Assembly: GCA_963813335.1 (NCBI GenBank)
Contig: CAWEYL010000003.1
Location: forward strand, 416,001 to 480,000
Direction: 5' to 3'
DNA from: an uncultured Chloroflexia bacterium
Lineage (GTDB): Bacteria > Chloroflexota > Limnocylindria > Limnocylindrales > CSP1-4
DNA: 64,000 nucleotides
Of this stretch, positions 6,436-64,000 are shown piece after piece; the stretch's first letter is position 1; each line of letters starts with the position of its first letter. The position numbers were made by a program, and so were the translations under genes. The notes beneath the pieces were generated by a model. It saw only the letters and a list, made by a program, of their open reading frames with translations, searched no databases and was not told the origin of the DNA.

Positions 6436-8740
6436 CTAGTGGAGCGGCAGGTTCAGGTTCGTGTAGGACTTGCGCCCGGCCGCGTCGGCGCCGTAGACGC
6501 GCAGCTTGAGCGTGCCCGTCCCGCCGCCCGTCTTCAGGTAGAAGACCGCGCGATACGTGTTCGCGGCCGTCTTGGTCATCGCCATGCTCCATGCCGCCTT
6601 GCCGGGCTGGACGATCGAGATCCGCGGCGCCGCCTTCTGCGTCTCGGCCGAGGTCGCGTAGACGATCATCTTCTGGCCGCGGGCCGGGGTGGAATCGCCG
6701 ACCCGGAAGCCGTAGGCGTTCATCTCGAAGGCGACCGCCTGCGTGCTCGTGGTCAGCGCATCGGTCGTGGTCACGACCGAGGTGTACCTGCCGATCGGCA
6801 GGCGGCCCGAGGCGTCGCTCTTCATGGCGTCGTAGCTGCGCGTGTACGAGCCGGCGTCCTGTGCCTGGGCATCGACGAGCGTGTCGACCACGGTGCCGGC
6901 GGCGTCGCGGATCGTCCAGGTCACGGTCGCCGGATGGAGGAGCCGGTAGCCCAGCACGGTCGTCGCGGCGTACTGGTCGCCGTCCTGCGGGTAGAAGAGG
7001 GTCCGCGACGTCGTCACGAACCCGAGCGTCGTGCTCACGCGGACCGGCCGGGCGATCGCGGACCCGGTGTTGCCGACCGAGTCCGTCAGGGTGAACCGGA
7101 CGTCGTACAGGCCGTCGGCGACGACCGTTCCGCCGCTGTCGCGGCCGTCCCAGCTCATGACCGGCGAGCCCGCCTTGACCGCGACGGCGATCTTGCGGAC
7201 CAGGGTGTCGGCGCCGTCGACGACGCGCATCGTCAGCGTCCCCGCTTCCGGCGCCACCGAGGTGAAGGCGACGGTCTCGCGCAGCCCGTCGCCGTTGGGG
7301 CTGATCAGGCCCTCCGGATCGGCGGCGGGCGTGACCGCGCCGAGCTCGGGCGCGACGGTGTCGACGGTGAGCGTGCCGGCGGTGGACGTGGACGCGTTGC
7401 CCCAGCCGTCGACGGCGTCGACGCTGACCGCGTACGCGCCGTCCGCGACCGTGACCCCGCCCGAGGTGCCGCCCCAGGTCAGGCTGAACGTCGCGCCGGT
7501 CCCGGTCGCGGTCTTGATCGTGCTGCCGTCGGCCCGCTTGACCGTGGCCGTCCAGGCGGCCGATTCGGAGAGGTTCCCGGAGATCGTCGCGGTGTCGGTC
7601 ACGCCGTCGCCATTGGGCGAGAAGCGCGCGGCGCCGCCGTCGACGCCCCAGACGCGCGGGGCGGCGCTGTCCTTGGGGACCAGGTCGCCGGCCGCCACCC
7701 AGCCGTCGATCGAGGGGTCGTCCAGGCCCTGGACGTGGACCGCCGTGCCGGCGACCACGGCCGTCGCCATGCTGCTCACGACGTGCAGGCGCGTGCCGGC
7801 CGGCAGGACCGCGGGCGGGTCGCCCTCGGCGGCGGGGGTGAGCGCCGAGCTGTCGAAGAGCGCGGCGCCGGCCGGGCCGGCCGCCGCGTTGCCGGGCACG
7901 ACGAGCCTGGTCGGGTCAAGGCTCGTGTCGGCCCACGTCGCGCCGGTGACGTCGTCGGTCGTCAGGCCCGGCTTCGCGACGAGCGAGCGGTAGTAGCCCG
8001 CCGTCGAGCTATCGGTGTCGGTGTAGGCCGTGGCGCCCGACGTGCGGGAGGACGCGAACGACTTGACGTGGTCGTGGAAGTTCGGGGCGCTCCGCCAGAC
8101 CTCCTCGATGGTGGCGTGGGTGGTGAACAGCGCCCGGATGTACGGCTCGGGGTTGCCGTGCCCGTCGGCGATGACCGCGCGCGCCCGGCCGCCCTTGAGG
8201 AAGCCCGCGCCGTAGTTGTCGACCCGCTGGCGGGCCACGGTCACGGACGGGGCCGCGTTGCCCGGCTCCGAGTTGCCCGACGCGTAGCACAGGTGGCTCA
8301 GGATCGACGACCGCGTTCGGCGCCAGGGCGAGCGTCGAGACATAGGGCTCGCCGTAGTACTGGTTGTTGTAGTCGCCGTTGCCGGCGGTGGCGTTGAGCC
8401 CGAAGCCGTCCTTGGTCGTGTACTTCGAGTCGTAGGTGTACGGGCTCGGCCATCCGTTGCCGTGGCCGAAGTAGATGACGATCGAGGCGCCGGTCGTCGC
8501 CGACTTGACCTTCGACCAGGTCGCGTTCGGGCTGTAGACCTTGACGACGTTCGAGGTGTACTTGATCGCCTCGGCGTAGGCGCGGTCGGCGTCCGCGCGA
8601 TACGAGGCGGTCGCGCCGTGCGTGGCCCCGACGATGATCACCACCTTGGCTCCCGCGGGAGCGGCCGCGCTCGCGGCCGGGGCGAACGCGCCCAGGGCGG
8701 CGAGCATGGCGAGCAGCAGGGCGGCGACGAGTCTGCGCAA
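6436..8740 (-). CDS. Secreted protein with an N-terminal putative caspase/gingipain-like (clan CD) domain and FlgD-Ig-like repeats; one frameshift near 8305
   Basis: Joining ORF 8009..8740 (signal peptide, KVVIIVG, IVIYFGHGNG) to ORF 6436..8343 restores NAVVILSHLCYASGNSEPG; repeats FSPNGDG, ISPNGDG, FYPQDGD, WDGRD...DGLY. Confidence 0.75.
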
Positions 8741-8911: not shown

Positions 8912-9512
8912 TCATTGTCCCTTGTCGCGCAAGCGCACCACCAGGTCCGCCAGCGCCGGGGCCGTCCGGTCCCGCTCGGAGACGATCGGCCGCCCGTCGC
9001 GCGTCCCGTCGACCGCCGGCCACCGGACCGCGGCCGTCGGGTCGTCCCACGCGAATCCCAGCTCGTCGCTCCCGTCGTACGGGTTGGTGACGAGGTACAG
9101 CATGCCCAGCGGTTCCAGGGCCAGGAACCCGTGCGCGACGCCGGCCGGGATGACGACCCAGCCGTCCTCGCCGATCTCGCGGGTCTCGACGACTGGCCGG
9201 CCGCCGGAGCCGTCGAGGACGGGCCGCAGGTCGACGAGCGCGACGAACGCCCGGCCCGAGGCGACGATCCAGTAGTCCAGCTGGCGGCGGTGGTAGTGCA
9301 GGCCGCGCAGGACGCCCAGGCGCGGACGTGGACAGGTTCGCCTGGACGAACGTCGGCGCGACGCCCGGGTCCGCGCCCGCGTCGCGCGGGTCGATCGCCG
9401 GGAACCGGTCGGCGCGCCACAGCTCCCGGAACGCGCCGCGGGCGTCCGCCATCCGCGCGACCGCCCCGTAGCGGACGCCGGGCAGCGACGACGCGGGGCG
9501 CTCGAGGCTCAT
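8912..9512 (-). CDS. rmlC: dTDP-4-dehydrorhamnose 3,5-epimerase; frameshift near 9317
   Basis: DARGAFRELW, FVQANLSTS, (V)LRGLHYH, IPAGVAHGF, FAWDDP, IVSERD; ATG overlaps the rmlD stop. Confidence 0.9.
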
Positions 9513-10435
9513 CGGGCGCGCCCGGGGGCGGCCGCCTGCCGCCGTGCGCGCTCGAGCGCGGGCGCGTAGTCGGCCATCGCGTCGGGCCACGGCCGGAGGG
9601 GCTCCCCGGACGGGAGCGGGGTCGCGGCGAGGACGCCCCAGCGCGGCGGGACCGAGGCACGCTCCCAGGTCGCGCCGGGGACGTGCTCGACCCGGACCGC
9701 CAGGCCGAACCGCCCGACGATGTCTTCGGCCCATAGCGCCCGGGTCGCGGTCAGGCCGTTCACGACGTGGTGGACGCCCGCGTGCGCGTCCTCGGCCAGC
9801 AGTTCCACGATGGCGTCGGCGACGTCGAGCGTGTACGTCGGGGTGCCCCATTCGTCGGCCACGACACGGAGCGGCTCCCCGGCCGCCGCCGCCCGGTCCG
9901 CCGCGGCGAGGATCTTGCGCGGGAAGTCGGGCTCGCCGGGGCCGAACAGCCAGGCCGTCCGCACGATGCCCAGCCGGCCCCCGCCCGCCGCGTCGGCATA
10001 GGCCGCGCCGGCCGCCCGCTCGCCGGCCAGCTTCGAGACGCCGTACGGGTTGCCGGGCGACGGCTCGTCCGCCGGTCCGTAGCCGAGGCCGTCGGTCCGC
10101 GCCCCGTCGAAGACCTCGTTGGTCGAGACCACCACGAGGTCGATCCCGCGCGCGGCGCACGCCCGGGCGAGCACGCCGGTCGCGGTCCCGTTGCGGGCGA
10201 GCGCGCGGTCCGGGTCGCGGGCGCAGCCGTCCACGTCGGTCCAGGCGGCGGCGTGGACGACGACCTCGGGCCGGTCGCGGTCGAGGGCCGCGGCCACGCC
10301 CTCGGGGGCGTCGAGGTCCAGCTCGCGGCGTCCCCATGCGAGCGGTCCGCCGGGGCCTGGGAACGGGGCGTCGGCGAGCGCGCCGACGAGCGCCGACCCG
10401 AGCCGCCCGGTCGCGCCGGTGACGGCGATCCGCAT
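9509..10435 (-). CDS. rmlD: dTDP-4-dehydrorhamnose reductase
   Basis: MRIAVTGATGRLG, HAAAWTDVDGC, STNEVFDG, YGVSKLAGE, RTAWLFG, DEWGTPTY. Confidence 0.92.
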   Translation of the reverse strand: MRIAVTGATGRLGSALVGALADAPFPGPGGPLAWGRRELDLDAPEGVAAALDRDRPEVVVHAAAWTDVDGCARDPDRALARNGTATGVLARACAARGIDLVVVSTNEVFDGARTDGLGYGPADEPSPGNPYGVSKLAGERAAGAAYADAAGGGRLGIVRTAWLFGPGEPDFPRKILAAADRAAAAGEPLRVVADEWGTPTYTLDVADAIVELLAEDAHAGVHHVVNGLTATRALWAEDIVGRFGLAVRVEHVPGATWERASVPPRWGVLAATPLPSGEPLRPWPDAMADYAPALERARRQAAAPGRAR

Positions 10436-11479
10436 CAGCCGGCCGAGCGGAGGCGCGCCCCGTACTGGCGCTCGTAGTACGCGTCCCAGTCGTCCGAGCG
10501 GGCCGCCCGCCACCACGCCTCGTTGGCGACGTACCAGTCGACCGTGGCCGCGAGGCCGGCCTGCGAACGGGACCCGCGGCGACCAGCCGAGCGCCGCGAT
10601 CCTCGTCCCGTCCATCGCGTAGCGCCGGTCGTGACCGGGTCGGTCCTCGACGTGGCGCACCAGCGACCACGGCTTGCCGAGGTGCTCCAGCAGCAGCCGG
10701 ACGATCTCGCGGTTCTCCATCTCTGACCCGCCCGGGACGTTGTAGGTCTCGCCGCTCGCCCCGTGGCGCAGCACGGTGTCGATCGCCGCGGCGTGGTCGG
10801 ACACGTGCAGCCAGTCGCGCCGCTGCCGGCCATCGCCGTACAGCGGCAGCGGCCGGTCGTCGATGGCGTTCGTCACGAACAGCGGGATGAGCTTCTCGGG
10901 GTGGTGGTACGGGCCGTAGGTGTTCGCCCCGCGGGTCACGACCGCGTCGACCCCGTGGGTCACGACGTAGCTGCGCACCAGCAGCTCCCCGGCGGCCTTC
11001 GCGGCGGCGTATGGCGAGCGCGGCGCGAGCGCATCGGTCTCGACCGACGCGCCGGTCGCCACCGAGCCGTAGACCTCGTCGGTGGAGACCTGGACGAAGC
11101 GCGGCTTGCTCGCGGCCGTGCGGCACGCCTCCAGGAGCACGTGGACGCCGATGACCCCGGTCCGCAGGAACGCCTCGGGGTCCAGGATCGAGCGGTCGAC
11201 GTGCGACTCCGCGGCGACGTTCACGACGGCATCCGCCTCGGCGACCAGCGGCCCGACGACCGTCGCGTCGGCGATGTCGCCGCGGACGAACCGCAGCCGC
11301 GCGGCCAGCTCCGGGTCGTCGCGGACCGGGGCGAGGTTGGCCTCGTTGCCGGCGTACGTCAGCTTGTCGAGGACCGTGATCTCGGTCCCGTCCCGGCGGC
11401 CCAGGACGTCGCGGACGTAGCACGAGCCGATGAACCCGGCGCCGCCGGTGACCAGCAGGCGACGGTAGCGGTCCGTCAC
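10435..11479 (-). CDS. rmlB: dTDP-glucose 4,6-dehydratase; frameshift near 10562
   Basis: LVTGGAGFIGS, DKLTYAGN, AAESHVDRSI, VSTDEVYGS, SPYAAAKA, EDRPGHDRRY; the C-terminus GLAATVDWY...YYERQYG lies in the adjacent frame. Confidence 0.93.
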
Positions 11480-12237
11480 GACGACGGCCGCTCCACCGGC
11501 GCCGCCAGCCGGCCGGCCGCGTCGTCGTCGCGCGCCAGCTCGGAGGCGCGCAGCAGCGACGGGACGGTCCCGGCGTCGGTCCAATGACCCTCGTAGACCG
11601 GGGCGTAGAGCCGGCCGTCGGGGATGTAGTGGTTGAGGACGTCGGTGATCTCGAGCTCGCCGCGGCCGGACGGCGACAGCCCGTCGATGACGTCGAACGC
11701 GTCCGGGCGGAGGAAGTAGACGCCGATCGGGATGAGGTCGCTCTTGGGCGCCTCGGGCTTCTCCTCGAAGCCGACCACCCGGCCGTCGGCGTCCAGCTCG
11801 GCGACGCCGAACCGCGCGGGGTCGGGGACCTGGTAGAGGAGCGTGCCGGCGCCGTACGGGCCGGATTCGAAGGCCGCCGCCACGGGTGCGAGGGCCGGAC
11901 CGCGCAGGATGTTGTCGCCGAGGATGCAGCAGAAGGCGTCGTCGCCCACGAAGTCGCGGGCGAGCCCGATGGCATGGGCGATGCCCAGCGCGCCCAGCTG
12001 GTAGCGGTAGGTCAGGTCGAGCCCGAAGTGGGCGCCGTCGGCGAGGAGCTCCACGACGTCGCCGACGCTCTTGCCGCCGACGATGACCATGACCTCGCGG
12101 ATGCCCATCCCGGCGAGCGTCTCGATGGGGTAGTAGATCATCGGCCGGTCGTAGATCGGCAGGAGGTGCTTGTTGGTGACGATCGTCAGCGGATAGAGCC
12201 GCGTCGCCGTCCCGCCGGCGAGGACGATGCCCTTCAT
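11476..12237 (-). CDS. rmlA: Glucose-1-phosphate thymidylyltransferase (short form)
   Basis: MKGIVLAGGTATRLYPLT, KHLLPIYDRPMIYYP, ILGDNI, FEEKP, SGRGELEITD, WTDAGT. Confidence 0.93.
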   Translation of the reverse strand: MKGIVLAGGTATRLYPLTIVTNKHLLPIYDRPMIYYPIETLAGMGIREVMVIVGGKSVGDVVELLADGAHFGLDLTYRYQLGALGIAHAIGLARDFVGDDAFCCILGDNILRGPALAPVAAAFESGPYGAGTLLYQVPDPARFGVAELDADGRVVGFEEKPEAPKSDLIPIGVYFLRPDAFDVIDGLSPSGRGELEITDVLNHYIPDGRLYAPVYEGHWTDAGTVPSLLRASELARDDDAAGRLAAPVERPSS

Positions 12238-12275
12238 CGGTCGGCCTTCATCCCGCCCAGCCTACCAGCCAGGGA

Positions 12276-20084: not shown

Positions 20085-23000
20085 CTACTGGGCCGGGCTG
20101 GCCGACGGTGCGGGCGACGGCAGGCCGAGGGTCGGGGCCAGCTGGTCGAGGCGGTCCAGCGCCGCCTTGACCGCCGCGGTCTCGGCGCCGTAGCCGGCGA
20201 AGTCACCGGCCCGCAGGGCAGCCTGGGCCAGGTCGTAGTGGCGGTTCGCGTAGGCGATCAGCCCGGCCACGTCATCGGGCAGCGGCTCGATCGGGCCGGC
20301 CGACGCGGTCGGACCCGGCGTCGGCGTCGGTCCGGGCGTCTGCCCGGGGCTCGGCGACGGGGTGGGCGACGGCGACGGGCCGCTTCGGGCCTCGGCCGCG
20401 AGCAGGAGATCGACGGCGCCGCCGAGGGTGGGTGCCCACACCACGTTGCGGTTGGACGCCACCACGATCCGCTGGAACTGGGGGAAGGCGAGGCTGGTCG
20501 ATTTCAGGTAGACCGGCTGGAAGTAGATGATCGAATCGCCGATCGGGACCACGATCAGGTTGCCCCGGATGACCGCGCTGCCCGACTGGTTCCAGAGGGT
20601 GACCTGCTGGCTGATGATCGGGTCCTGGTCGATGCGCGCCTCGATCTGGGTCGGCCCGAAGACCGTCGATTCGGCGGGGAATCGGTAGACCCGCGTGGTC
20701 CCGCGGTTCGGCGCGTCGTTCCGGGCCGCGATCCAGGCGATCATGTTCGGCCGGTTCTCGGGAACCATCGGTTGGAGCAGCAGGAACTCCGCCTTCGACT
20801 CGCCCGGCATCCGCATGACGACGTAGTAGGCCTCGGACGGCAGCGTCTGCTCGTTGCCGGTCGAGGTCGGCACCGTCCACAGGTCGTCGGTGCGGAAGAA
20901 CTGCTGCGGGTCGGTCACGTGGTAGCGCCCGAACATGTTGGTCTGGACGTTGAACAGCTGCTCGGGGACGCGCAGGTGGCGCTGCAGGTCGGCCGGCATC
21001 TGGTCGATCGGGGTGAACAGCGTCGGGAAGACCCCCTCGTACGCTCGGACGATCGGGTCGGTCGGGTCGGCGACGTAGAAGTGCATGGTCCCGTCGTACG
21101 CGTCGACCGTGATCTTCACGCTGTTGCGGATGTAGTCGATGTCGTCGGACCCGAGCCCCGATCCGGGCAGGGCGCCCGGGTCGAAGGCCTGCGCGTTCGG
21201 GAACCGGTCCGACGTCGTGTAGGCGTCCTGGATGTAGACCAGCTCGCCCGCGAGTCGTCGACGACGAGGTACGGGTCCTTGTCGAACTTGAGGAACGGGG
21301 CGATGCGGCTGAGGCGATCCGACAGCGAGCGATGGAACAGCAGCTGGCTGTCGGCCGTGACCTGGTCGCTGATCATCAGGTCCAGGTCGCGGAAGCGCAG
21401 CGAGAACAGCAGGCGCATGAGCGTGTTGTCGAGCTTGATCCCGGTGGTCCCGGTCCAGCGCGTCTCGGTGCCATTGGCCGAGGAGGCGTCGCCCGCGCCG
21501 GTCGGGAAGTCGAACTCGGCCTGCTTGGCGCCGACCACGACGTAATCGGACGGCCGCTCCCCGAAGTAGATACGCGGCTGGGTGATCGCCGGCGCGCCGC
21601 TGACGGAACGCGGTGGGAGATCGCTGATGAACAGGTCCGGCTGGCCGTCGTTGGTGACCTCGTTGACGGGCACCATCGCGACGCCGATCCCGTGCGTGTA
21701 GACGATCCGCTGGTTGACCCAGCCGGTCGCGTTGGGGTTCTGCTCGAGCGCGAGCTCTCGTCCGGAGAGCATGACCTGGCGCTCGTCGCCGGCGATCGTG
21801 TACCGGTCGGTGTCGACGTCCGTGAAGTCGTAATAGCGGCGGATCGTCTGGAGCTGGTCCAGCGTGTCCTGGAGCGGCCGGTAGTCCCAGAGCCGGGCGT
21901 TCTGGAAGGTGTCCGGCTCCGAATCGACGAGCGCCTGGGTCAGCGGCTGATCGCCCTTGAACGGTGGGTTCTCCCAGCCTTCCAGGCCGTAGGCGAGGCG
22001 GGTCATCGCGATGTTGTTGGCGATATACGGCTGCTCCTGGGCGAACTTGTTCGGTTCGACCGAGAGCCGCTGGATGGCCCACGGGTAGACCTGGCCGACG
22101 GCCAGCGAGGCGATGAACCAGACGGCCACGGTCAGCCCGAGCGGCCAGACGTAGCGCGTGAACGCCGCCCCGACGAGGAGTGCGGCGGCGAGCCCGGAGA
22201 TCACCGTCAGCACGTCGAAGGCGAAGAACTGCGCGTGCTGGTCCGTGAAGCTCACGCCGGTCGCCACGCCGCGGGTGCTGTACACCAGCTCGTACTTGTC
22301 GAGCTGGTAGCCGAAGGCGACCGACAGCAGGAACAGCCCGCCGAGCACGGCGATGTGGACGCGGACCGGCGTCGAGAAGACCAGGCCGCCGCGCGCCGCG
22401 CCGACGAGGTACCGGGCGCCGACCACGATGAGCGAGCCGATCACCAGCGCATTGAAGAGGCCCTGCATCAGGCGCAGGAACGGGAGCTGGAACAGGAAGA
22501 AGCCGATGTCGCGGCCGAAGATCGGGTCCGTGACCGCCGCCGCGCCGGCGGGCGCGAACGGGACCTGGTGGGCCCACAGCAGGATGGTCTCCCACGCCGC
22601 CGCGAGCGAGCCGCCGATGGTCAGCGCGAGCAGCCCCGAGACGATGACGAGCCCGACCCCGGCGATCGGCGTCAGGTCCGGCAGGTCGTCGGCATCGAAG
22701 ACGATGGTCCGCGGCTCGCCGAAGCCCGGCGATCCCGGACGTCGTCGGCCGCCGGCACTGGAGCTTGCCGCGTCGTTGACCCGGTCGATGATGCCGCGCA
22801 GGCTCGACGGCCCGGTCCCCGGCGGCGGGCTGAGCCGGTTCGCGATCGCCAGGTTGCCGAGCAGGACCACGAGCGCGAGGGCGAGGCCGCCGATGAACAG
22901 CAGCGCCTGGGCGCCGACCCGGGTCCAGAAGACGCCGTCGAAGTGGATGCTGGCGTACCACAGGGCGTCGGTCCACAGGTCGATGCCGAAGCTGAACAGC

Positions 23001-23320
23001 AGGAAGAGCGCGATCAGCGCGGCGAGGATGACCCACAGGCCGATGCGCCGGCCGCGCCCGGAGCGGGCGCCGTCGTCGGGGCCGCCAGGCGCGCGCCGGC
23101 GCCGGATGTGCTCCGGCGGGGGCCGCTCGGCGTCGTCCGAGGACGCCTCGTCGTCGCCGTGCTCCTGGTCGGCGTCGTCGTCGTCCCGGTCGTCGTCGTC
23201 GGTGTCCGGCTCGTCGGGGTCGCGCTCGTCCGGCGGCTTCGGGGTGGGGTCCGGCTCGCCGCGCGCCTGTGCTTCGCGGCGGCGCAGCTCCTCGAGGAAG
23301 TCGTCGAACATGTCACGCAT
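20085..23320 (-). CDS. UPF0182 (COG1615) family membrane protein; frameshift near 21250
   Basis: WTDALWY, DPIFGRDIGFFLFQLPF, EQPYIANNIAMTRLAYGL, NARLWD, DVDTDRY, YTHGIG, DKDPY, then YIRNSVKITVDAYDG, VIRGNLIVVP in the second frame. Confidence 0.93.
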
Positions 23321-23348
23321 CGTCCGCGGAGTCTAGTCGGTATCGGCG

Positions 23349-57745: not shown

Positions 57746-58252
57746 CTAGCCGCGCCGGTCGATCTCCTCGCGCAACGCCCCGAGGATCTCGAGCTCGATC
57801 AGGTCCTTCGGTCGGCCGGCGGCGCGTTTCATCGCCATCAGGTCCTGGAGGCTGGCGATCTGCACGGCAGCGCCGTGCAGGGTCGTGCCGACGGCGTGCT
57901 CGAGGAGCCGCTGGTAGTCGAATCCGGGATCCGGTGCGGCCAGCAGGTCGAAGTCGCCGTAGCGGGTGGTGAGGGTGAAGAGGCCACCTGCCCGCAGCGT
58001 TCGGGCGTCGAGCGGCGGCATCCGCGGACCATCCGGAGGGAGGCCACGCCGGATGGCAGCGAGCTTCGACAGGGCATCCGCAAGCGCCGACAGGTTGTCA
58101 GGATCGCGGGCGTAGCAGATGTCGATGTCGGCCGTGAGCGACGGTGAGCCATGGGCTTGACTCGCGATGCCACCGATCAGGACGAACCTGACCCCATGAC
58201 GGATCAGGACCTCGAGGATGAGGTCTGGCCTGAAGCGGGGAAGCTCGCTCAT
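57746..58252 (-). CDS. Pol-beta superfamily nucleotidyltransferase (candidate toxin)
   Basis: VRFVLIGGIA...HGSPSLTADIDI, DFDLL, ASLQDLMAMKRAAGRPKD. Confidence 0.82.
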   Translation of the reverse strand: MSELPRFRPDLILEVLIRHGVRFVLIGGIASQAHGSPSLTADIDICYARDPDNLSALADALSKLAAIRRGLPPDGPRMPPLDARTLRAGGLFTLTTRYGDFDLLAAPDPGFDYQRLLEHAVGTTLHGAAVQIASLQDLMAMKRAAGRPKDLIELEILGALREEIDRRG

Positions 58253-58575
58253 TCGGCCACCCGGCGGAGACGACGTCGGAACTCCACCATCTCGGTGTCA
58301 TCGGCCATCGACACCGCCAGGCGCTTGGACATCGGAACGTCCAGGCGCTCCTGGATCTGCGACCGGTCCACGCCGATCCCGAGGCGCGGCAGCGATTCGA
58401 GGCCGTAGCCGCATGCCTCGAGCAGGCGATCGAGCGTGCCGACGCGCGGATCCACGCGGCCGCGCTCGATGCGCGCGATCGTCTCCTGCGGGATGCCGGC
58501 TTTCGCGGCCAGCTGCCGCTGGGTCAGCTTCGCGCGCTGCCGCGCCTCTCGGACCATCCGCCCCGCCATCGACAT
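58249..58575 (-). CDS. XRE-family HTH protein (candidate antitoxin)
   Basis: VREARQRAKLTQRQLAAKAGIPQETIARIERGRVDPRVGTLDRLLEACG; GGAGG RBS; stop overlaps the NTase ATG. Confidence 0.88.
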   Translation of the reverse strand: MSMAGRMVREARQRAKLTQRQLAAKAGIPQETIARIERGRVDPRVGTLDRLLEACGYGLESLPRLGIGVDRSQIQERLDVPMSKRLAVSMADDTEMVEFRRRLRRVAE

Positions 58576-58587
58576 CGCTCGATCCTC

Positions 58588-58631
58588 CGTGATGACGTAA
58601 ACATCATCACGTGGCGGGGCCGCGACGTCAA
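58588..58631 (-). promoter_or_regulatory. Promoter TTGACG-N17-GATGAT overlapped by the operator CGTGATGA-N8-TCATCACG
   Basis: Perfect 8-bp IR 58588-58595 / 58604-58611; CGTCAA at 58626-58631. Confidence 0.7.
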
Positions 58632-59107
58632 GTGATCGGCAGCGGCACCCATTTGCCGAGCGCGGTCGAGACCGCCACGAACAGCGGCAGCCCCTGGTCG
58701 ATGTCGACCTCGCACGACGCGATCCGCTCGGGGCCGGACGGCGCCGCGAACGTGTAGATGATCTCCTGACCATCGAACGCGGTCGGGCACTGGCCGGTGA
58801 ACGGGTGGCTCCGAAGCCCCGCGAAATCGGTGAGCTTGATCGCAGTGTCGATGGCGGCGACCTGCGCAAGCGGCACCGTCCCGAGGAAGTTCGGCGGCTT
58901 GGCGGCCTCGTGGACGGTTCCGTCGCGCTCGAGGACGACCGTGCGGCCGCACGTCCCCGCCGGGCATTCGCCGCCCCGGAGCTCGACGGTCACCAGCGGC
59001 CCGGCGGCGGTCGGGATGACCGACTCGGCCCCGCAGGCCGACACCGCGATGGCAACGAGCACGAGCACGATGAGCGCCGGGATGGGCGCACGACGACGGA
59101 CCTGCAT
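58628..59107 (-). CDS. Small lipoprotein with four additional cysteines
   Basis: Lipobox VSAC; [26 protein letters not shown]. Confidence 0.75.
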
Positions 59108-59161
59108 GGCCGCCCGACGATACGGGACGCCGAGCGGTTCCCGCGACGCTACCCTCATCCC

Positions 59162-60760
59162 ATGCCCGTCCTGCGCAGCCGGCTGGACCCGAACGCCTCG
59201 GAGACGCGCGCCAACCACGAGGCGATGGCGGCGCTGGTCGACGACCTGCGAGCCCGCCAGGCCGCCGTCGCGGGTCGCGGGGCCGGCGGCGACGACCGCT
59301 CGATCGAGCGCCATCGCGAGCGCGGCAAGCTCCCGGTCCGCGAGCGCATCGACCGGCTCATCGACCCGGGATCGGCCTTCCTGGAGCTGAGCCCGCTGGC
59401 CGCCACCGGCCTCTACGACGACGACGCGCCCGGCGCGGGGATCGTCACCGGCATCGGCCGGATCGAGGGCACGACCTGCGTGGTCGTCGCCAACGACGCG
59501 ACGGTCAAGGGCGGCACCTACTACCCGATGACCGTCAAGAAGCACCTCCGCGCGCAGGAGATCGCGCTCGAGAACCGCCTGCCGTGCCTCTACCTCGTCG
59601 ACAGCGGCGGCGCGTTCCTCCCGCTCCAGGCGGAGGTCTTCCCGGACCGCGACCACTTCGGCCGCATCTTCTACAACCAGGCGCGGATGTCCGCCGCCGG
59701 GATCCCGCAGGTCGCGCTCGTCATGGGCAGTTGCACGGCCGGCGGCGCCTACGTCCCCGCGATGAGCGACGAGACCGTCATCGTCAAGGGCACCGGCACG
59801 ATCTTCCTCGGCGGCCCGCCGCTGGTGAAGGCGGCGACCGGCGAGGACGTCACGCCCGAGGAGCTCGGCGGGTCCGCGGTCCACACCCGGCTGTCCGGCG
59901 TCGCCGACCACGAGGCGCTCGACGACGAGCACGCGCTGGCGCTCGGCCGGTCCATCGTGTCGAACCTGAACCGCCGACCGCCGGCGCCGCCCTGGGACCG
60001 CCGCGAGGTCGAGGCACCGGCCGTCGACCCGGCCGGGCTCTACGGCTCGGTCTCGCTCGACCCGCGCCGGCCGGTCCCGGTCCGCGAGATCATCGCCCGG
60101 CTCGTCGACGGCTCGCGCTTCCACGAGTTCAAGCCGCTCTACGGCGACACGCTGGTCACCGGCTTCGCCCACCTCGCCGGCTACCCGGTCGCGATCATCG
60201 CCAACGACGGGATCCTCTTCAGCCAGTCGTCGCTCAAGGGCGCGCACTTCATCGAGCTCGCGTGCCAGCGCCGGATCCCGCTGGTCTTCCTCCAGAACAT
60301 CACCGGGTTCATGGTCGGCCGCGAGTACGAGGAGGCCGGCATCGCCAAGGACGGCGCGAAGCTGGTCACGGCGGTCGCCTCGGCGGAGGTCCCCAAGTTC
60401 ACGGTGCTCATCGGCGGCAGCTTCGGGGCCGGCAACTACGCGATGGCGGGCCGCGCCTACCAGCCGCGGTTCCTGTGGTCCTGGCCGAACAGCCGCATCA
60501 GCGTGATGGGCGGCCAGCAGGCGGCCCGCGTCCTCTCGACGGTCCGGGGCGGGTTCGCCGACGACGCCGAGCGCGACGCCTTCGAGGCGCCGATCCTCGA
60601 GACCTACGAGCGCGAGGGCTCGCCGTACTTCGCGACGGCCCGGCTCTGGGACGACGGGGTCATCGACCCGCTGGACACGCGGCGCATCCTGACGATGGGC
60701 ATCGAGGCGGCGCTCCACGCGCCGATCCCCGAGACCCGCTTCGGGGTCTTCCGGATGTGA
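59162..60760 (+). CDS. mccB: Methylcrotonoyl-CoA carboxylase carboxyltransferase (beta) subunit
   Basis: [92 protein letters not shown]. Confidence 0.93.
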
Positions 60761-60798
60761 ATCCGCGGCGTCTCGCCGCGGTCCGCTAGCATCCGCGG

Positions 60799-61567
60799 GT
60801 GCCGACCGTCAGCCGTCTCAGCATCGCGCCCGTGCGCAGCCTCGGGCTGGAGCACCGCGACGAGATCCGCCTCGAGGAGAAGGGCGTCCTCGAGGACCGG
60901 CGGTTCTTCGTCATCGACGCGACGAACCGCCTGATCGACCAGCTGATCGAGGGCACGCTCGTCCAGGTCACGGCGTGGACCGACCCGGAGGCCACGATCC
61001 TGCGGCTCACGTTCCCGGACGGCACGGTCGTCGAGGACGCGGTCGAGCTCGCCGAGCCCATCGTGACCGCGATCCACAAGCGCACCGGGGTGGGCCACGT
61101 CGTGGTCGGGCCGTGGGGTCCGGCCCTCTCCGACTTCCTCGGCCGCGAGGTCCGGTTCGTCCGCTGCGACCAGCCGGGCGGGACGCGCATCGCCCATCCG
61201 GCCTCGCTCGTCACGGACGGCTCGATCGAGGCGCTCGCCGGCGTCCTCGGCGCCGGCGACATCGATGCCCGCCGCTTCCGGATGCTCATCGAGCTCGAGG
61301 GCGGGCGCGCCCACGAGGAGGACACCTGGGTCGGCTGCCGGGTCGCGCTCGGCGAGCGCGATCCTGCGCATCAGCGCGCCCGTGCCGCGCTGCGCGATGA
61401 CCACCCACGACCCGGCGACCGGCCACCGCGACCTCGACACCCTCCGCGCGATCAAGGACTACCGCGGCCTCGTCGACGGCAAGGACCTGATGTTCGGCGT
61501 GTGGGGCGAGGTCGAGCGGCCCGGGACCATCCGCCTCGGCGACCGCGTCCAGGTGCTGCCCGACTGA
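60799..61567 (+). CDS. MOSC domain protein; frameshift near 61358
   Basis: LSIAPVRS, DRRF, RRFRMLIEL, HEEDTW, then PVPRCAMTTHDPATG...GTIRLGDRV. Confidence 0.87.
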
Positions 61568-61591
61568 CCGGCTGCGGCCCGGGGGTCTGAG

Positions 61592-62261: not shown

Positions 62262-63071
62262 GTGCCGCACACCGTCCGCCTCGAACGCACCGGCCCGGGT
62301 GGCGTCGTCGCCCGGGTGACGCTGTCGCGGCCCGACGTCCACAACGCCTTCGACGCGACGCTCATCGCCGAGCTGCGGACCGCGTTCGCGATCCTCGCCC
62401 GTGAGGGTCCGGCCACGATGCGCGCCGTCGTCCTGACCGGCGACGGGCCGTCGTTCAGCGCCGGCGCCGACATCAACTGGATGCGCGCCGCGATGTCGCT
62501 CGATGTCGAGGGCAACGAGCAGGACGCGATGGCGATGGCCGACATGCTCGAGACCGTGGACACGTGTCCCGTGCCGGTGATCGCGCGGGTCCACGGCGCG
62601 GCGCTCGGCGGCGGGATGGGGCTGTGCGCCGTCGCGGATCTCGTCATCGCCGAGAGCGGGACCCGGTTCGGCTTCACCGAGACGCGCCTCGGGATCCTGC
62701 CGGCGGTCATCTCGCCGTTCGTCATCGCCAAGATCGGCGAGAGCCACGCGCGGGCGCTGTTCCCGGGCGGCCGCCGCATCGATGCCATCCGCGCCCAGCG
62801 GATCGGCCTGGTGCACGAGGTCGTCGAGGGCGAGGAGGCGCTGGACGCCGCCGTCGACGCGGCCGTCGCGGACCTGCTGCTGGCCGGCCCGACGGCGGCG
62901 CGTGCCGCGAAGGCGATCGTCCGCGAGGTGCGCGGCCTGGGCCACGGATCGTCGAAGTGGCACACGGCGCGGGTCATCGCCCGGCAGCGCGTCAGCGAGG
63001 AGGCGCGCGAGGGCTTCGCCGCCTACGACGAGCATCGACCGCCGTCATGGGCACCCGACAAGGAGACGTGA
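62262..63071 (+). CDS. liuC: Enoyl-CoA hydratase family protein, probable methylglutaconyl-CoA hydratase
   Basis: RPDVHNAFD, FSAGADINWM, GAALGGGMGL, FTETRLGILPAVISPFV, SEEAREG; mcc gene context. Confidence 0.85.
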   Translation: MPHTVRLERTGPGGVVARVTLSRPDVHNAFDATLIAELRTAFAILAREGPATMRAVVLTGDGPSFSAGADINWMRAAMSLDVEGNEQDAMAMADMLETVDTCPVPVIARVHGAALGGGMGLCAVADLVIAESGTRFGFTETRLGILPAVISPFVIAKIGESHARALFPGGRRIDAIRAQRIGLVHEVVEGEEALDAAVDAAVADLLLAGPTAARAAKAIVREVRGLGHGSSKWHTARVIARQRVSEEAREGFAAYDEHRPPSWAPDKET

Positions 63072-63575
63072 CGCCGGACGGGCCGGTCGTGGCGTGCGTC
63101 GGCTGCGGCGGCCTCGTCCCGGACATCGACGGCCCGACGCACCGCTACCTCGAGAGCTCACCGGGATGCTGGGCGATCTACTCGGCGCTGCCCTATGGCG
63201 GCATGGCCGGTCCAGCCGAGCAGCCATATGCCTCGATGATGGTCGACGCGTACGCGGTGCAGCACCCCGGCCGGCCGGGCCGCTCGTCGACCCCGTCCGT
63301 CTGGATCCACCTCGCGGCGATGCACCTCGTGCTCCGGCGTGGCTGGCCGGCCGAACGCCTCATCGAGATCCGCCGCGTCGCCGCCGACGCCTACGACGGG
63401 TGGCCGTGGCTCACGCCGCCGGCATCGATGGGGCCGGTCACGGCCGTCGACGTGGCAGCGGCGCCGGCAAGCGAGGTCGCCGACCGCGTTCGTGCCTGGG
63501 TCGAGGGCGCGAGCGCCGCGTGGACGGCCCACGACCCCGAGATCGCAGGCGCTGACGGAGCGGCTCTTCGGCTGA
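63068..63575 (+). CDS. DUF5946-like protein; frameshift near 63550
   Basis: CVGCG, GPTHRYLESSPGCW, VDAYAVQHP, SVWIHL, WLTPP; GTG overlaps the liuC stop. Confidence 0.75.
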
Positions 63576-63611
63576 TCGCTCGGCGCTCGATATGCGACGA
63601 TCGCGACACAC

Positions 63612-64000
63612 ATGGCCGAGGAACTGAGCCCGAGCGAGGTCGCGCGACGTCTGGGGACGTCGACGCGGACCGTCCAGCGCTGGATCGAGAGCGGGAAGCT
63701 GCCCGCGCGACGCGTTGGCGGACGCTGGCGTGTCGCGAATGTCGCGTTTGACGCGTTCGAGCGCGATACGGCGGCCGGGCGACGGGCGCCGCGAGCCCGA
63801 TCCGGCGCCTCTTCGTGGCCAACCGCGGCGAGATCGCGGCACGGATCCAGCGGACGTGCGACCGCCTCGGGATCGTGGCCGTCCTGCCCGTCACCGACGG
63901 CCCGGATGCGCTCGACCTGCTCGACATCGATGCCGTGGTCGCGGCGGCCCGTTCGGCCGGCGCCGACGCGGTCCACCCCGGGTTCGGGTTCCTGGCCGAG
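63612..64000 (+). CDS. Excisionase/MerR-like HTH joined (via an indel at about 63760-63795) to a biotin carboxylase, probable MccA/LiuD; truncated by the window edge
   Basis: [41 protein letters not shown], then [20 protein letters not shown]...[13 protein letters not shown] in the adjacent frame, which has no start codon of its own. Confidence 0.8.

Follow-up and report, generated by a model that had tools for sequence, protein, structure and literature searches.

Enzymes that carry a DNA-binding domain of their own are few and instructive, and BirA and PutA are examples of such trigger enzymes. Biotin-dependent carboxylases are among the best studied multi-subunit enzymes, and no trigger enzyme of this kind is known among them. 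In Proteobacteria, the liu, or leucine catabolic, operons are regulated by LiuR, a member of the MerR family, and BldC, a regulator with a MerR-like fold, binds direct repeats head to tail. Here I describe a gene that begins near the end of a 64,000-nucleotide stretch of DNA from an uncultured Chloroflexota bacterium (G000:C3:416001-480000; the whole stretch is called the window below) and in which a helix-turn-helix (HTH) domain is joined to the alpha subunit of a 3-methylcrotonyl-CoA carboxylase (MCC). Through this HTH, the enzyme may regulate the gene that encodes it. Taken as a whole, the reading that I favour, with somewhat better than even confidence, is of one HTH-MCC-alpha polypeptide expressed from its own promoter, the HTH of which autoregulates through a dyad that overlaps this promoter.

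LiuR is likewise a MerR-type HTH linked to methylcrotonyl-CoA carboxylase genes, but it is a separate protein with a dimerisation helix and an effector region, whereas the protein described here consists of an HTH of about 50 amino acids, a variable linker and an enzyme. The closest solved relatives of the HTH are BldC of Streptomyces (6ama, 6amk), the Xis of phage Pukovnik (4j2n) and RacA of B. subtilis (5i41, 5i44), with TM-scores of 0.76-0.80 and 29-40% identity. Judged by the titles of their entries, these are MerR-like winged HTH proteins solved with DNA or binding it. They are small and stand alone or carry a coiled coil, whereas the HTH here is tethered to a 600-amino-acid enzyme subunit. 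BirA of E. coli and B. subtilis, a group II biotin protein ligase/repressor, is likewise a trigger enzyme of the DNA-binding type in biotin metabolism, as set out in passages of PMC4016012 and PMC5640590. It differs in that it joins a biotin ligase to the BirA winged HTH, whereas an ATP-grasp biotin carboxylase is joined to an HTH_17/MerR-like domain here, and in that the link between catalysis and DNA binding has been demonstrated for BirA, whereas for the present fusion it is a proposal. A full-text literature search returned no description of an HTH-carboxylase fusion; in passages of PMC12776079, 'helix-turn-helix' denotes a structural motif of the beta subunit only. The enzyme-HTH fusion is real and undescribed, and the proteins that carry it are public under automatic names only.

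In the window, the N-terminal HTH_17 (MerR/excisionase-type winged HTH) part is encoded at 63612..63779 on the forward strand, which corresponds to residues 1-56 as placed by Pfam, AlphaFold2 (AF2) and Foldseek. The start of the MCC-alpha-like biotin carboxylase, which includes HPGFGFLAE and gives a Biotin_carb_N match in Pfam (E 1.9e-16), occupies 63797..64000 (+), where it is truncated by the window end. The gene itself runs to G000:C3:481630, and 12 kb around the window end were taken as locus L001 for reading it downstream. As assembled, the biotin carboxylase N-terminus reads one base back (-1 frame) relative to the HTH frame opened by ATG 63612, and tblastn brackets the switch between the two frames within the linker, at 63761..63797 (+). 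The carboxylase frame contains a TGA at 63749..63751 (+), which lies 5' of the frame break and is hence unread in a fused protein. Past this TGA, the first ATG, GTG or TTG in the carboxylase frame is GTG 63815, the valine inside FVANRGEIA, and for this reason no plausible start codon is available within that frame. The frame of the HTH, for its part, is open to the equivalent of position 64037, past the window end. An earlier, sequence-only reading of this DNA had noted the HTH_17 domain at ATG 63612, the TGA near 63749 with no ATG, GTG or TTG before the carboxylase start, and the absence of a nearby stop from the HTH frame, all of which stand, and it had taken a single fused protein to be the simplest interpretation.

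The relatives bear this interpretation out. A search of 40 relatives with the carboxylase N-terminus found the orthologous locus in 19 genomes of the same genus, and at all 19 loci tblastn aligns the HTH and the first stretch of the carboxylase N-terminus next to it in a single frame; in three of them (L019-L021) the frame changes further 3', inside the carboxylase N-terminal segment. Seventeen of the same-genus loci have an ATG at HTH residue 1 and a single open frame through ANRGEIA, and the remaining two are truncated by a contig end (L007) or broken inside the HTH (L008). The count was then extended to all relatives with one locus per genome, so that four duplicates were dropped, as were L007, L008 and the locus of the window itself. 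In 64/64 usable loci, an uninterrupted frame that opens with the ATG or GTG of the HTH runs through to ANRGEI. A stop after the HTH with a separate start for the carboxylase, which the sequence-only reading had named as the outcome that would tell against it, was seen in none of these 64, and the HTH_17 plus Biotin_carb_N architecture that it had proposed to look for is common to all of them. The linker between the end of the wing and ANRGEI varies in sequence and measures 20-45 residues in relatives (median 27.5). In the five longer loci that were read, drawn from relatives of both families that carry the fusion (f1 and f4), HTH_17, Biotin_carb_N, CPSase_L_D2, Biotin_carb_C and Biotin_lipoyl all fall in one open reading frame (ORF). 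On these alignments, one polypeptide is the right reading of the locus.

Protein collections hold the same architecture. PF12728 is found together with PF00289, PF02786 and PF02785 in each of the best 120 clusters listed (of 3107 hits in all), most of which contain PF00364 as well and have lengths around 655-700. Source names among the listed clusters include 'excisionase family DNA binding protein', '3-methylcrotonyl-CoA carboxylase alpha subunit' and 'MAG TPA: biotin carboxylase N-terminal domain-containing protein [Candidatus Limnocylindrales b...'. In the Protein Atlas, residues 1-120 had no usable match, and the whole protein returned a 60-member Chloroflexota cluster along with ordinary carboxylase clusters. 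A profile of the HTH was also searched against 1.84 billion representatives, and the 48 closest were scanned for domains: 18 contain carboxylase domains, six are tandem HTH arrays, one combines an ECH domain with the HTH, and in the other 23 no domain besides the HTH was seen, the tail being unrecognisable or the sequence a fragment. No other enzyme family was found fused to this HTH subtype among those 48 representatives.

The range of the fusion was traced by searching with residues 1-100 of the protein from a relative (E <= 1e-12). At the class level, 138/301 genomes match, in 35/57 genera. The matches are concentrated in f4 (93/103 genomes) and f1 (44/91), and none was found in f2 (0/12), f3 (0/92) or f5 (0/2). 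The f4 matches include six genomes that carry an unpublished flag (G189, G319, G274, G122, G156 and G131), and without them the counts are 132/295 overall and 87/97 in f4. At the phylum level, 25/401 sampled genomes match, all in f1 (8/23) and f4 (16/16), and the fusion was not found in any of the approximately 80 further families that this 401-genome search sampled. A separate contig search with an alignment of the N-terminus kept 0/80 loci with an HTH; it was swamped by [FL][IV]ANRGEI[AV] and is uninformative on the range outside the phylum.

Genomes that carry the fusion yielded no unfused orthologue. With no alternative start either, the fusion is, as the compared genomes present it, obligate. 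Four f1 genomes without the fusion were inspected: three have only biotin carboxylase (BC)-type genes of about 450 amino acids that are 47-51% identical, and the fourth (G045) also has a 51% identical match in an open frame of 672 amino acids. One f3 genome has a 50% identical alpha-type paralogue. None of these unfused f1 and f3 carboxylase genes has an HTH or the upstream motif (described below) at its start, and the same holds for the motif in L091, a Limnocylindrales record with an unfused related carboxylase. Since the fusion-free f1 genomes show only genes of about 50% identity, some fusion-free f1 genera may lack the orthologue altogether.

The HTH domain itself is clear by several measures. 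Over residues 5-49 it matches Pfam HTH_17 (PF12728) with 52.7 bits (E 5e-14), where the cut-off is 27, and it ranks first among the six HTH_17 matches of the genome; the Pfam MerR HTH scores 31.4 bits, with the MerR and MerR_1 matches spanning residues 7-40 only. A profile of 21 sequences searched against the PDB found Pukovnik Xis (6e-8), RacA (5e-6) and BldC (3e-3), and also lambda Nu1 and P2 Cox. The AF2 model has a mean predicted local distance difference test score (pLDDT) of 87.9 and winged-HTH topology (b-H-H-b-b-H), with helices at residues 7-14, 18-27 and 43-55 and strands at 33-35 and 38-42. Foldseek places BldC first, with a TM-score of 0.80 and a root-mean-square deviation of 1.4 A, in agreement with the earlier label of BldC-like, and then RacA bound to DNA, Xis, RdfS and MerR-family regulators; for so small a domain the Foldseek E-values are 1.5e-3 and weaker. 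Nineteen of 56 HTH columns are invariant, including R19, Q22, R23, W24, R34, R38 and R40, and the mean column identity of the recognition helix and wing is 75%. By its family, its modelled fold and the invariant basic residues of the recognition helix and wing, the domain is predicted to be of the DNA-binding kind. It lacks the MerR dimerisation helix, and a variable linker follows after residue ~55 and then ANRGEIA; because that helix is absent, the protein is not of the LiuR type within the MerR family.

The enzyme part appears equally intact. A relative's full protein aligns with MCC alpha of P. aeruginosa (3u9s) over residues 56-662 (E 2e-136). Among the top PDB matches, 3u9s, 8rth, 8j4z, 8f3d and 8f41 are named MCC alpha, of which 3u9s alone was aligned end to end, and 9yx0 and 9tps are named biotin carboxylase only. 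The enzyme part is thus nearer to MCC alpha than to ACC, PCC or PC. Residues 1-55 are covered by none of the 60 best solved carboxylase chains. GGGGKG is retained in 119/120 proteins, RDCS.QRR in 119/120 and E.N.R.QVEH in 118/120, and AMKM, where biotin is attached, is present in each of 115 proteins of full length; I take these patterns to be the catalytic and biotinylation motifs. The three BC domains (N, ATP-grasp and C) and the biotinyl domain stand in one chain in all five ORFs of relatives and in the Pfam lists of the clusters, and in the window's own genome all MCC-alpha domains and motifs are readable, spread over four frames. The enzyme part is therefore best described, at the level of prediction, as a complete MCC-alpha-like subunit that should be catalytically competent. 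The solved MCC alpha subunits (P. aeruginosa 3u9s, human 8j4z) have the same domain order, and differ from the fused proteins of f1 in that the latter are without part of the BC N-terminal domain: Biotin_carb_N is matched in two stretches, or over profile positions 59-110 only, in the f1 proteins (L194-L196), as against positions 2-110 in f4 (L192, L193). The partial BC N-terminal domain of the f1 proteins maps to 63830-63960 of the window.

Directly upstream of the fused gene lies a conserved element, TATGCGACGATCGCGACA, at 63591..63608 (+), which ends 3 nt 5' of the ATG and is a candidate promoter/operator. In the window it reads as an extended -10 (TG-n-GACGAT) followed by CGCGAC, and it contains an inner GC-rich dyad, GCGA-N3-TCGC, which can alternatively be read as a direct repeat, GCGAC-N4-GCGAC; in some genera the dyad grows to GACGCGA-CAA-TCGCGTC. 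This element of 14-18 bp is the only conserved upstream stretch in the 19 same-genus loci, and across loci it ends 0-5 nt 5' of the start codon. The anchor, a GACNNT-CGCG-like motif, is present at the loci of 66/66 genomes, and GCGACNNTCGCG at 61/66. A TG at -15/-14, as in an extended -10, is found in 52/66 loci, and TTGnnn lies 17-18 bp upstream in 11/14 of the loci without the TG versus 5/52 of those with it. In f4, the first base of the ATG or GTG stands exactly 7 nt past the -10 T in 22/22 loci, a spacing that points to leaderless mRNA; in f1 the distance from the -10 to the start is mostly 10-11 nt. The fused gene thus appears to have its own promoter of the sigma-70 type and a predicted leaderless or near-leaderless mRNA. 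At L050 (G186), two copies of GCGACAATCGCG stand about 28 nt apart 5' of the fused gene.

The exact 14-mer GCGACAATCGCGAC occurs in 84/103 f4 genomes, or 82/101 if the unpublished G274 and G189 are left out, in almost every case as a single copy beside the fused gene, and outside f4 in 5/92 f3 genomes (4/91 without the unpublished G139) and 2/12 f2 genomes; the reversed 14-mer, used as a control, gave one hit in 301 genomes. Its copies away from the fused gene sit inside coding sequence, G023 excepted. The element was absent directly 5' of 10 unfused carboxylase genes. In a position weight matrix (PWM) scan of the window's whole genome, the top match is the promoter site of the fused gene (score 31.4). 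The second best (24.4) lies at window 63731-63748 (-), inside the HTH coding sequence and 120-140 bp from the promoter site, and has weaker counterparts at +119 to +128 in seven other loci; further extra matches lie upstream, at about -111 to -115, in L031 and L044. The matches in the coding region are probably a by-product of the VA.VA and DA.DA codons.

What might the HTH domain do? I infer autoregulation via the upstream element. The HTH domains of assembled or neighbouring alpha subunits would bind the dyad over the -10 hexamer and the discriminator and, once bound, would occlude the promoter and block RNA polymerase, so that the carboxylase would repress its own gene and probably also the HMG-CoA (3-hydroxy-3-methylglutaryl-CoA) lyase gene behind it. 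The chance that the HTH binds this candidate site seems to me about even, and that binding depends on the state of the enzyme, which would make it a true trigger enzyme, is distinctly less likely. At the level of sequence motifs, an active enzyme and a domain of the DNA-binding type do occur in one polypeptide, as in trigger enzymes of the BirA, PutA and NadR type, and such a function is plausible. The reach of the control would be narrower than the liu transcription at large that the sequence-only reading had proposed, a part of its claim that is not supported: the sole candidate site is the fused gene's own promoter, and the carboxyltransferase and hydratase genes upstream are without it. 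Control would thus extend to the fused gene and probably to HMG-CoA lyase, and not to the upstream genes for the beta subunit and the hydratase. A bolder version, which I consider rather doubtful, makes the MCC holoenzyme itself the transcription factor, with the six tethered HTH domains of alpha6beta6 acting on the dyad over the -10 of the alpha gene. Gating could then come from assembly with beta, from biotinylation or from a change induced by 3-methylcrotonyl-CoA, and leucine catabolic flux would set the transcription of the alpha and HMG-CoA lyase genes. Filamentation of MCC responds to substrate, according to PMC12776079.

Several observations weigh against autoregulation, and with them stands the strongest rival, a reading in which the fusion is real and the HTH is no autoregulator. 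Here the element would be only the strong core promoter of a leaderless mRNA, and the HTH would serve another end, such as non-specific nucleoid tethering, a role in protein-protein contacts or assembly, or binding at other, undetected sites. Much of the conservation of the element is explained by a promoter role (the complementarity of TG and -35, A-11, T-7 and the 7-nt spacing to the start), and this rival accounts for TG-n-GACAAT, the complementary TTGnnn (11/14 vs 5/52) and the fixed f4 spacing alike. Searches of the whole genome by exact pattern, relaxed patterns and PWM found no other promoter-located site, and the pattern and PWM scans likewise found no wider liu regulon. In G023, of the same genus, GCGACAATCGCGAC stands 1 nt before the ATG of a gene for an Ig-like membrane protein (L168:1501-2712), and no fused carboxylase was found in that genome. 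On the other side, conservation around the hexamer, at positions to which no promoter role is ascribed, matches that of the hexamer (GC before GAC and CGCG after it, in 61-64/66 loci of two families), the exact 14-mer persists in 84/103 f4 genomes while flanks and linker diverge freely, and the recognition helix and wing are strongly conserved at 75% mean column identity. At this point I regard the promoter-only explanation as possible and somewhat unlikely, and autoregulation by the HTH as the better candidate.

The frame breaks in the window's own copy call for a separate explanation. Beyond the window, the carboxylase continues for about 1.8 kb in four frame pieces and ends in the biotinyl domain (EAMKMEH). 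It shifts frame three more times 3' of the window, in keeping with the earlier remark that this assembly is rich in indels; by eye, these later breaks look like a single inserted base each in CGCGGCC and GCCGGGCGAG, and like two inserted bases or one lost in CGCCGGCC. The three lie at about L001 6306, 6694 and 6953-6958. It is very probable that the break in the window is an assembly indel, one of several local indel errors. The frame pieces are 75-86% identical in amino acids to relatives, retain the catalytic motifs and contain no in-frame stop. Among public sequencing runs, none contained more than 0.17 of the sampled words, and contigs of four runs were compared at >=90% likeness. One contig from X1 (record 1, 314 nt, depth 2.55) covers L001 5584-5847 with four mismatches over 264 nt and is without one base at 63780 and one at 63783; the net change of -2 joins the carboxylase to the HTH frame with no stop between. 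A contig from X2 (record 9, 151 nt, covering 63500-63613) has no mismatches and two indels relative to the window, at 63548 and 63582, and a contig from X4 has the same two indels shifted by one base (63547/8, 63581/2). Within about 350 bases, then, the differences between the window's assembly and near-identical short contigs are mainly indels. In the genus, assemblies of <=20 contigs have breaks in this gene in 5/13 cases and those of >=110 contigs in 0/6. Other few-contig assemblies of the genus break the same gene in different places, and in another few-contig genome, G046, the carboxyltransferase gene is likewise split.

Assembly error is not without difficulties. The contig that joins the frames is a single one of depth 2.55 that is 98% identical and may come from another strain, among the listed contig pieces those of four runs bridge the junction but none bridges breaks 2-4, and there are four breaks in ~2 kb versus one clear split gene (UPF0182) in the remaining ~62 kb of the window. 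These points leave some room for a second rival, in which, in this one genome, the carboxylase gene is degenerating into a pseudogene and the breaks are true mutations. The density of breaks (at least four in ~2.1 kb), the failure of the compared contigs to bridge breaks 2-4 and the adjoining hydratase, carboxyltransferase and HMG-CoA lyase ORFs, which cover their Pfam profiles in full, all favour it. Yet every frame piece retains its likeness to relatives, with all the catalytic motifs and no in-frame stop, what sets the near-identical short contigs apart from the window is a series of indels (63547/8, 63581/2, 63780 and 63783), one contig having no substitution at all, other few-contig assemblies of the genus break this gene elsewhere, and G046 has a split carboxyltransferase gene too. 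I consider decay improbable and assembly error the preferred explanation, and whether the break is an error or a mutation, the fused architecture of the lineage is not in doubt. The weakest rival, that a small HTH regulator and the carboxylase behind it are encoded by separate genes, the second with a non-canonical start or expressed through programmed frameshifting, draws on the different frames of the two parts and the TGA before the carboxylase part in the window as assembled, and can be set aside as having next to no probability, since no relative has a break at the junction (stop or frame change in 0/64), the carboxylase frame offers no start codon before the GTG inside FVANRGEIA and the alignment has no conserved Met or Val near the junction.

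Other reading frames in the window are interrupted or extended as well. The UPF0182 gene at 20088-23332 (-) is spread over two frames, the ORF 21119-23332 matching profile positions 2-563 and the ORF 20088-23312 positions 559-770, which points to another frame break in the assembly. A DUF5946 ORF at 63068-63751 (+) has no stop of its own and continues across all of the HTH region as far as the TGA at 63751. The indels of the X2 and X4 contigs (one base out at 63547/8 and one in at 63581/2) would end DUF5946 near 63575, and its read-through is probably a further assembly indel. The ORF at 60790-61587 (+) has a MOSC_N domain only, relatives have a MOSC-domain gene at the same position of the cluster, and this may be another frame break.

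The neighbourhood of the fused gene is consistent across relatives. In the window, a gene for an enoyl-CoA hydratase, probably methylglutaconyl-CoA hydratase (62262..63071, +; Pfam ECH_1 3.8e-44), lies 5' of the fused gene, and the frame of the carboxyltransferase, or beta subunit, is at 58601..60757 (+; Carboxyl_trans 6e-144, profile 2-483 of 493). An ECH gene 5' of the fused gene and an HMGL-like gene directly 3' of it are found in 5/5 relatives of both families and in the window's own genome, and a Carboxyl_trans gene further 5' in 3/5 relatives (L192, L195, L196) and in the own genome. Because of these ECH, HMGL-like and Carboxyl_trans neighbours, the cluster is, by its gene content, leucine-catabolic (liu-type). 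The gene context also suggests that the substrate is 3-methylcrotonyl-CoA, specificity residing chiefly with the beta subunit. Divergent from the carboxyltransferase gene lies an XRE-type HTH_3 gene (58252-58989, -; E 2.6e-15), which may encode a regulator, distinct from the fused protein, for the upstream part of the cluster. Between the carboxylase and HMG-CoA lyase genes there is a 47-codon ORF with no Pfam family (L001:7690-7830, or G000:C3:481690-481830). Elsewhere in the window, at 9512-12247 (-), an RmlB-type dehydratase (residues 265-561) is followed by an RmlD-type reductase (605-890) in a single open frame that no stop interrupts, which is either a fusion or a lost stop.

The gene is often mis-called in indel-rich long-read metagenome-assembled genomes (MAGs), as the 23/48 closest representatives with an HTH and an unrecognisable tail, or in fragments, illustrate, and as a consequence automatic annotation hides and mislabels the architecture, for example as an 'excisionase family DNA binding protein'. 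Within Chloroflexota, the upstream element would serve as a clear instance of an extended -10 promoter for a leaderless mRNA, and the HTH and its candidate site a compact, testable protein-DNA pair from an uncultured lineage of Chloroflexota that is abundant in soil and freshwater. If the proposed function is true, the fused protein would be the first DNA-binding trigger enzyme among biotin carboxylases, conserved in two Limnocylindria-like families of Chloroflexota.

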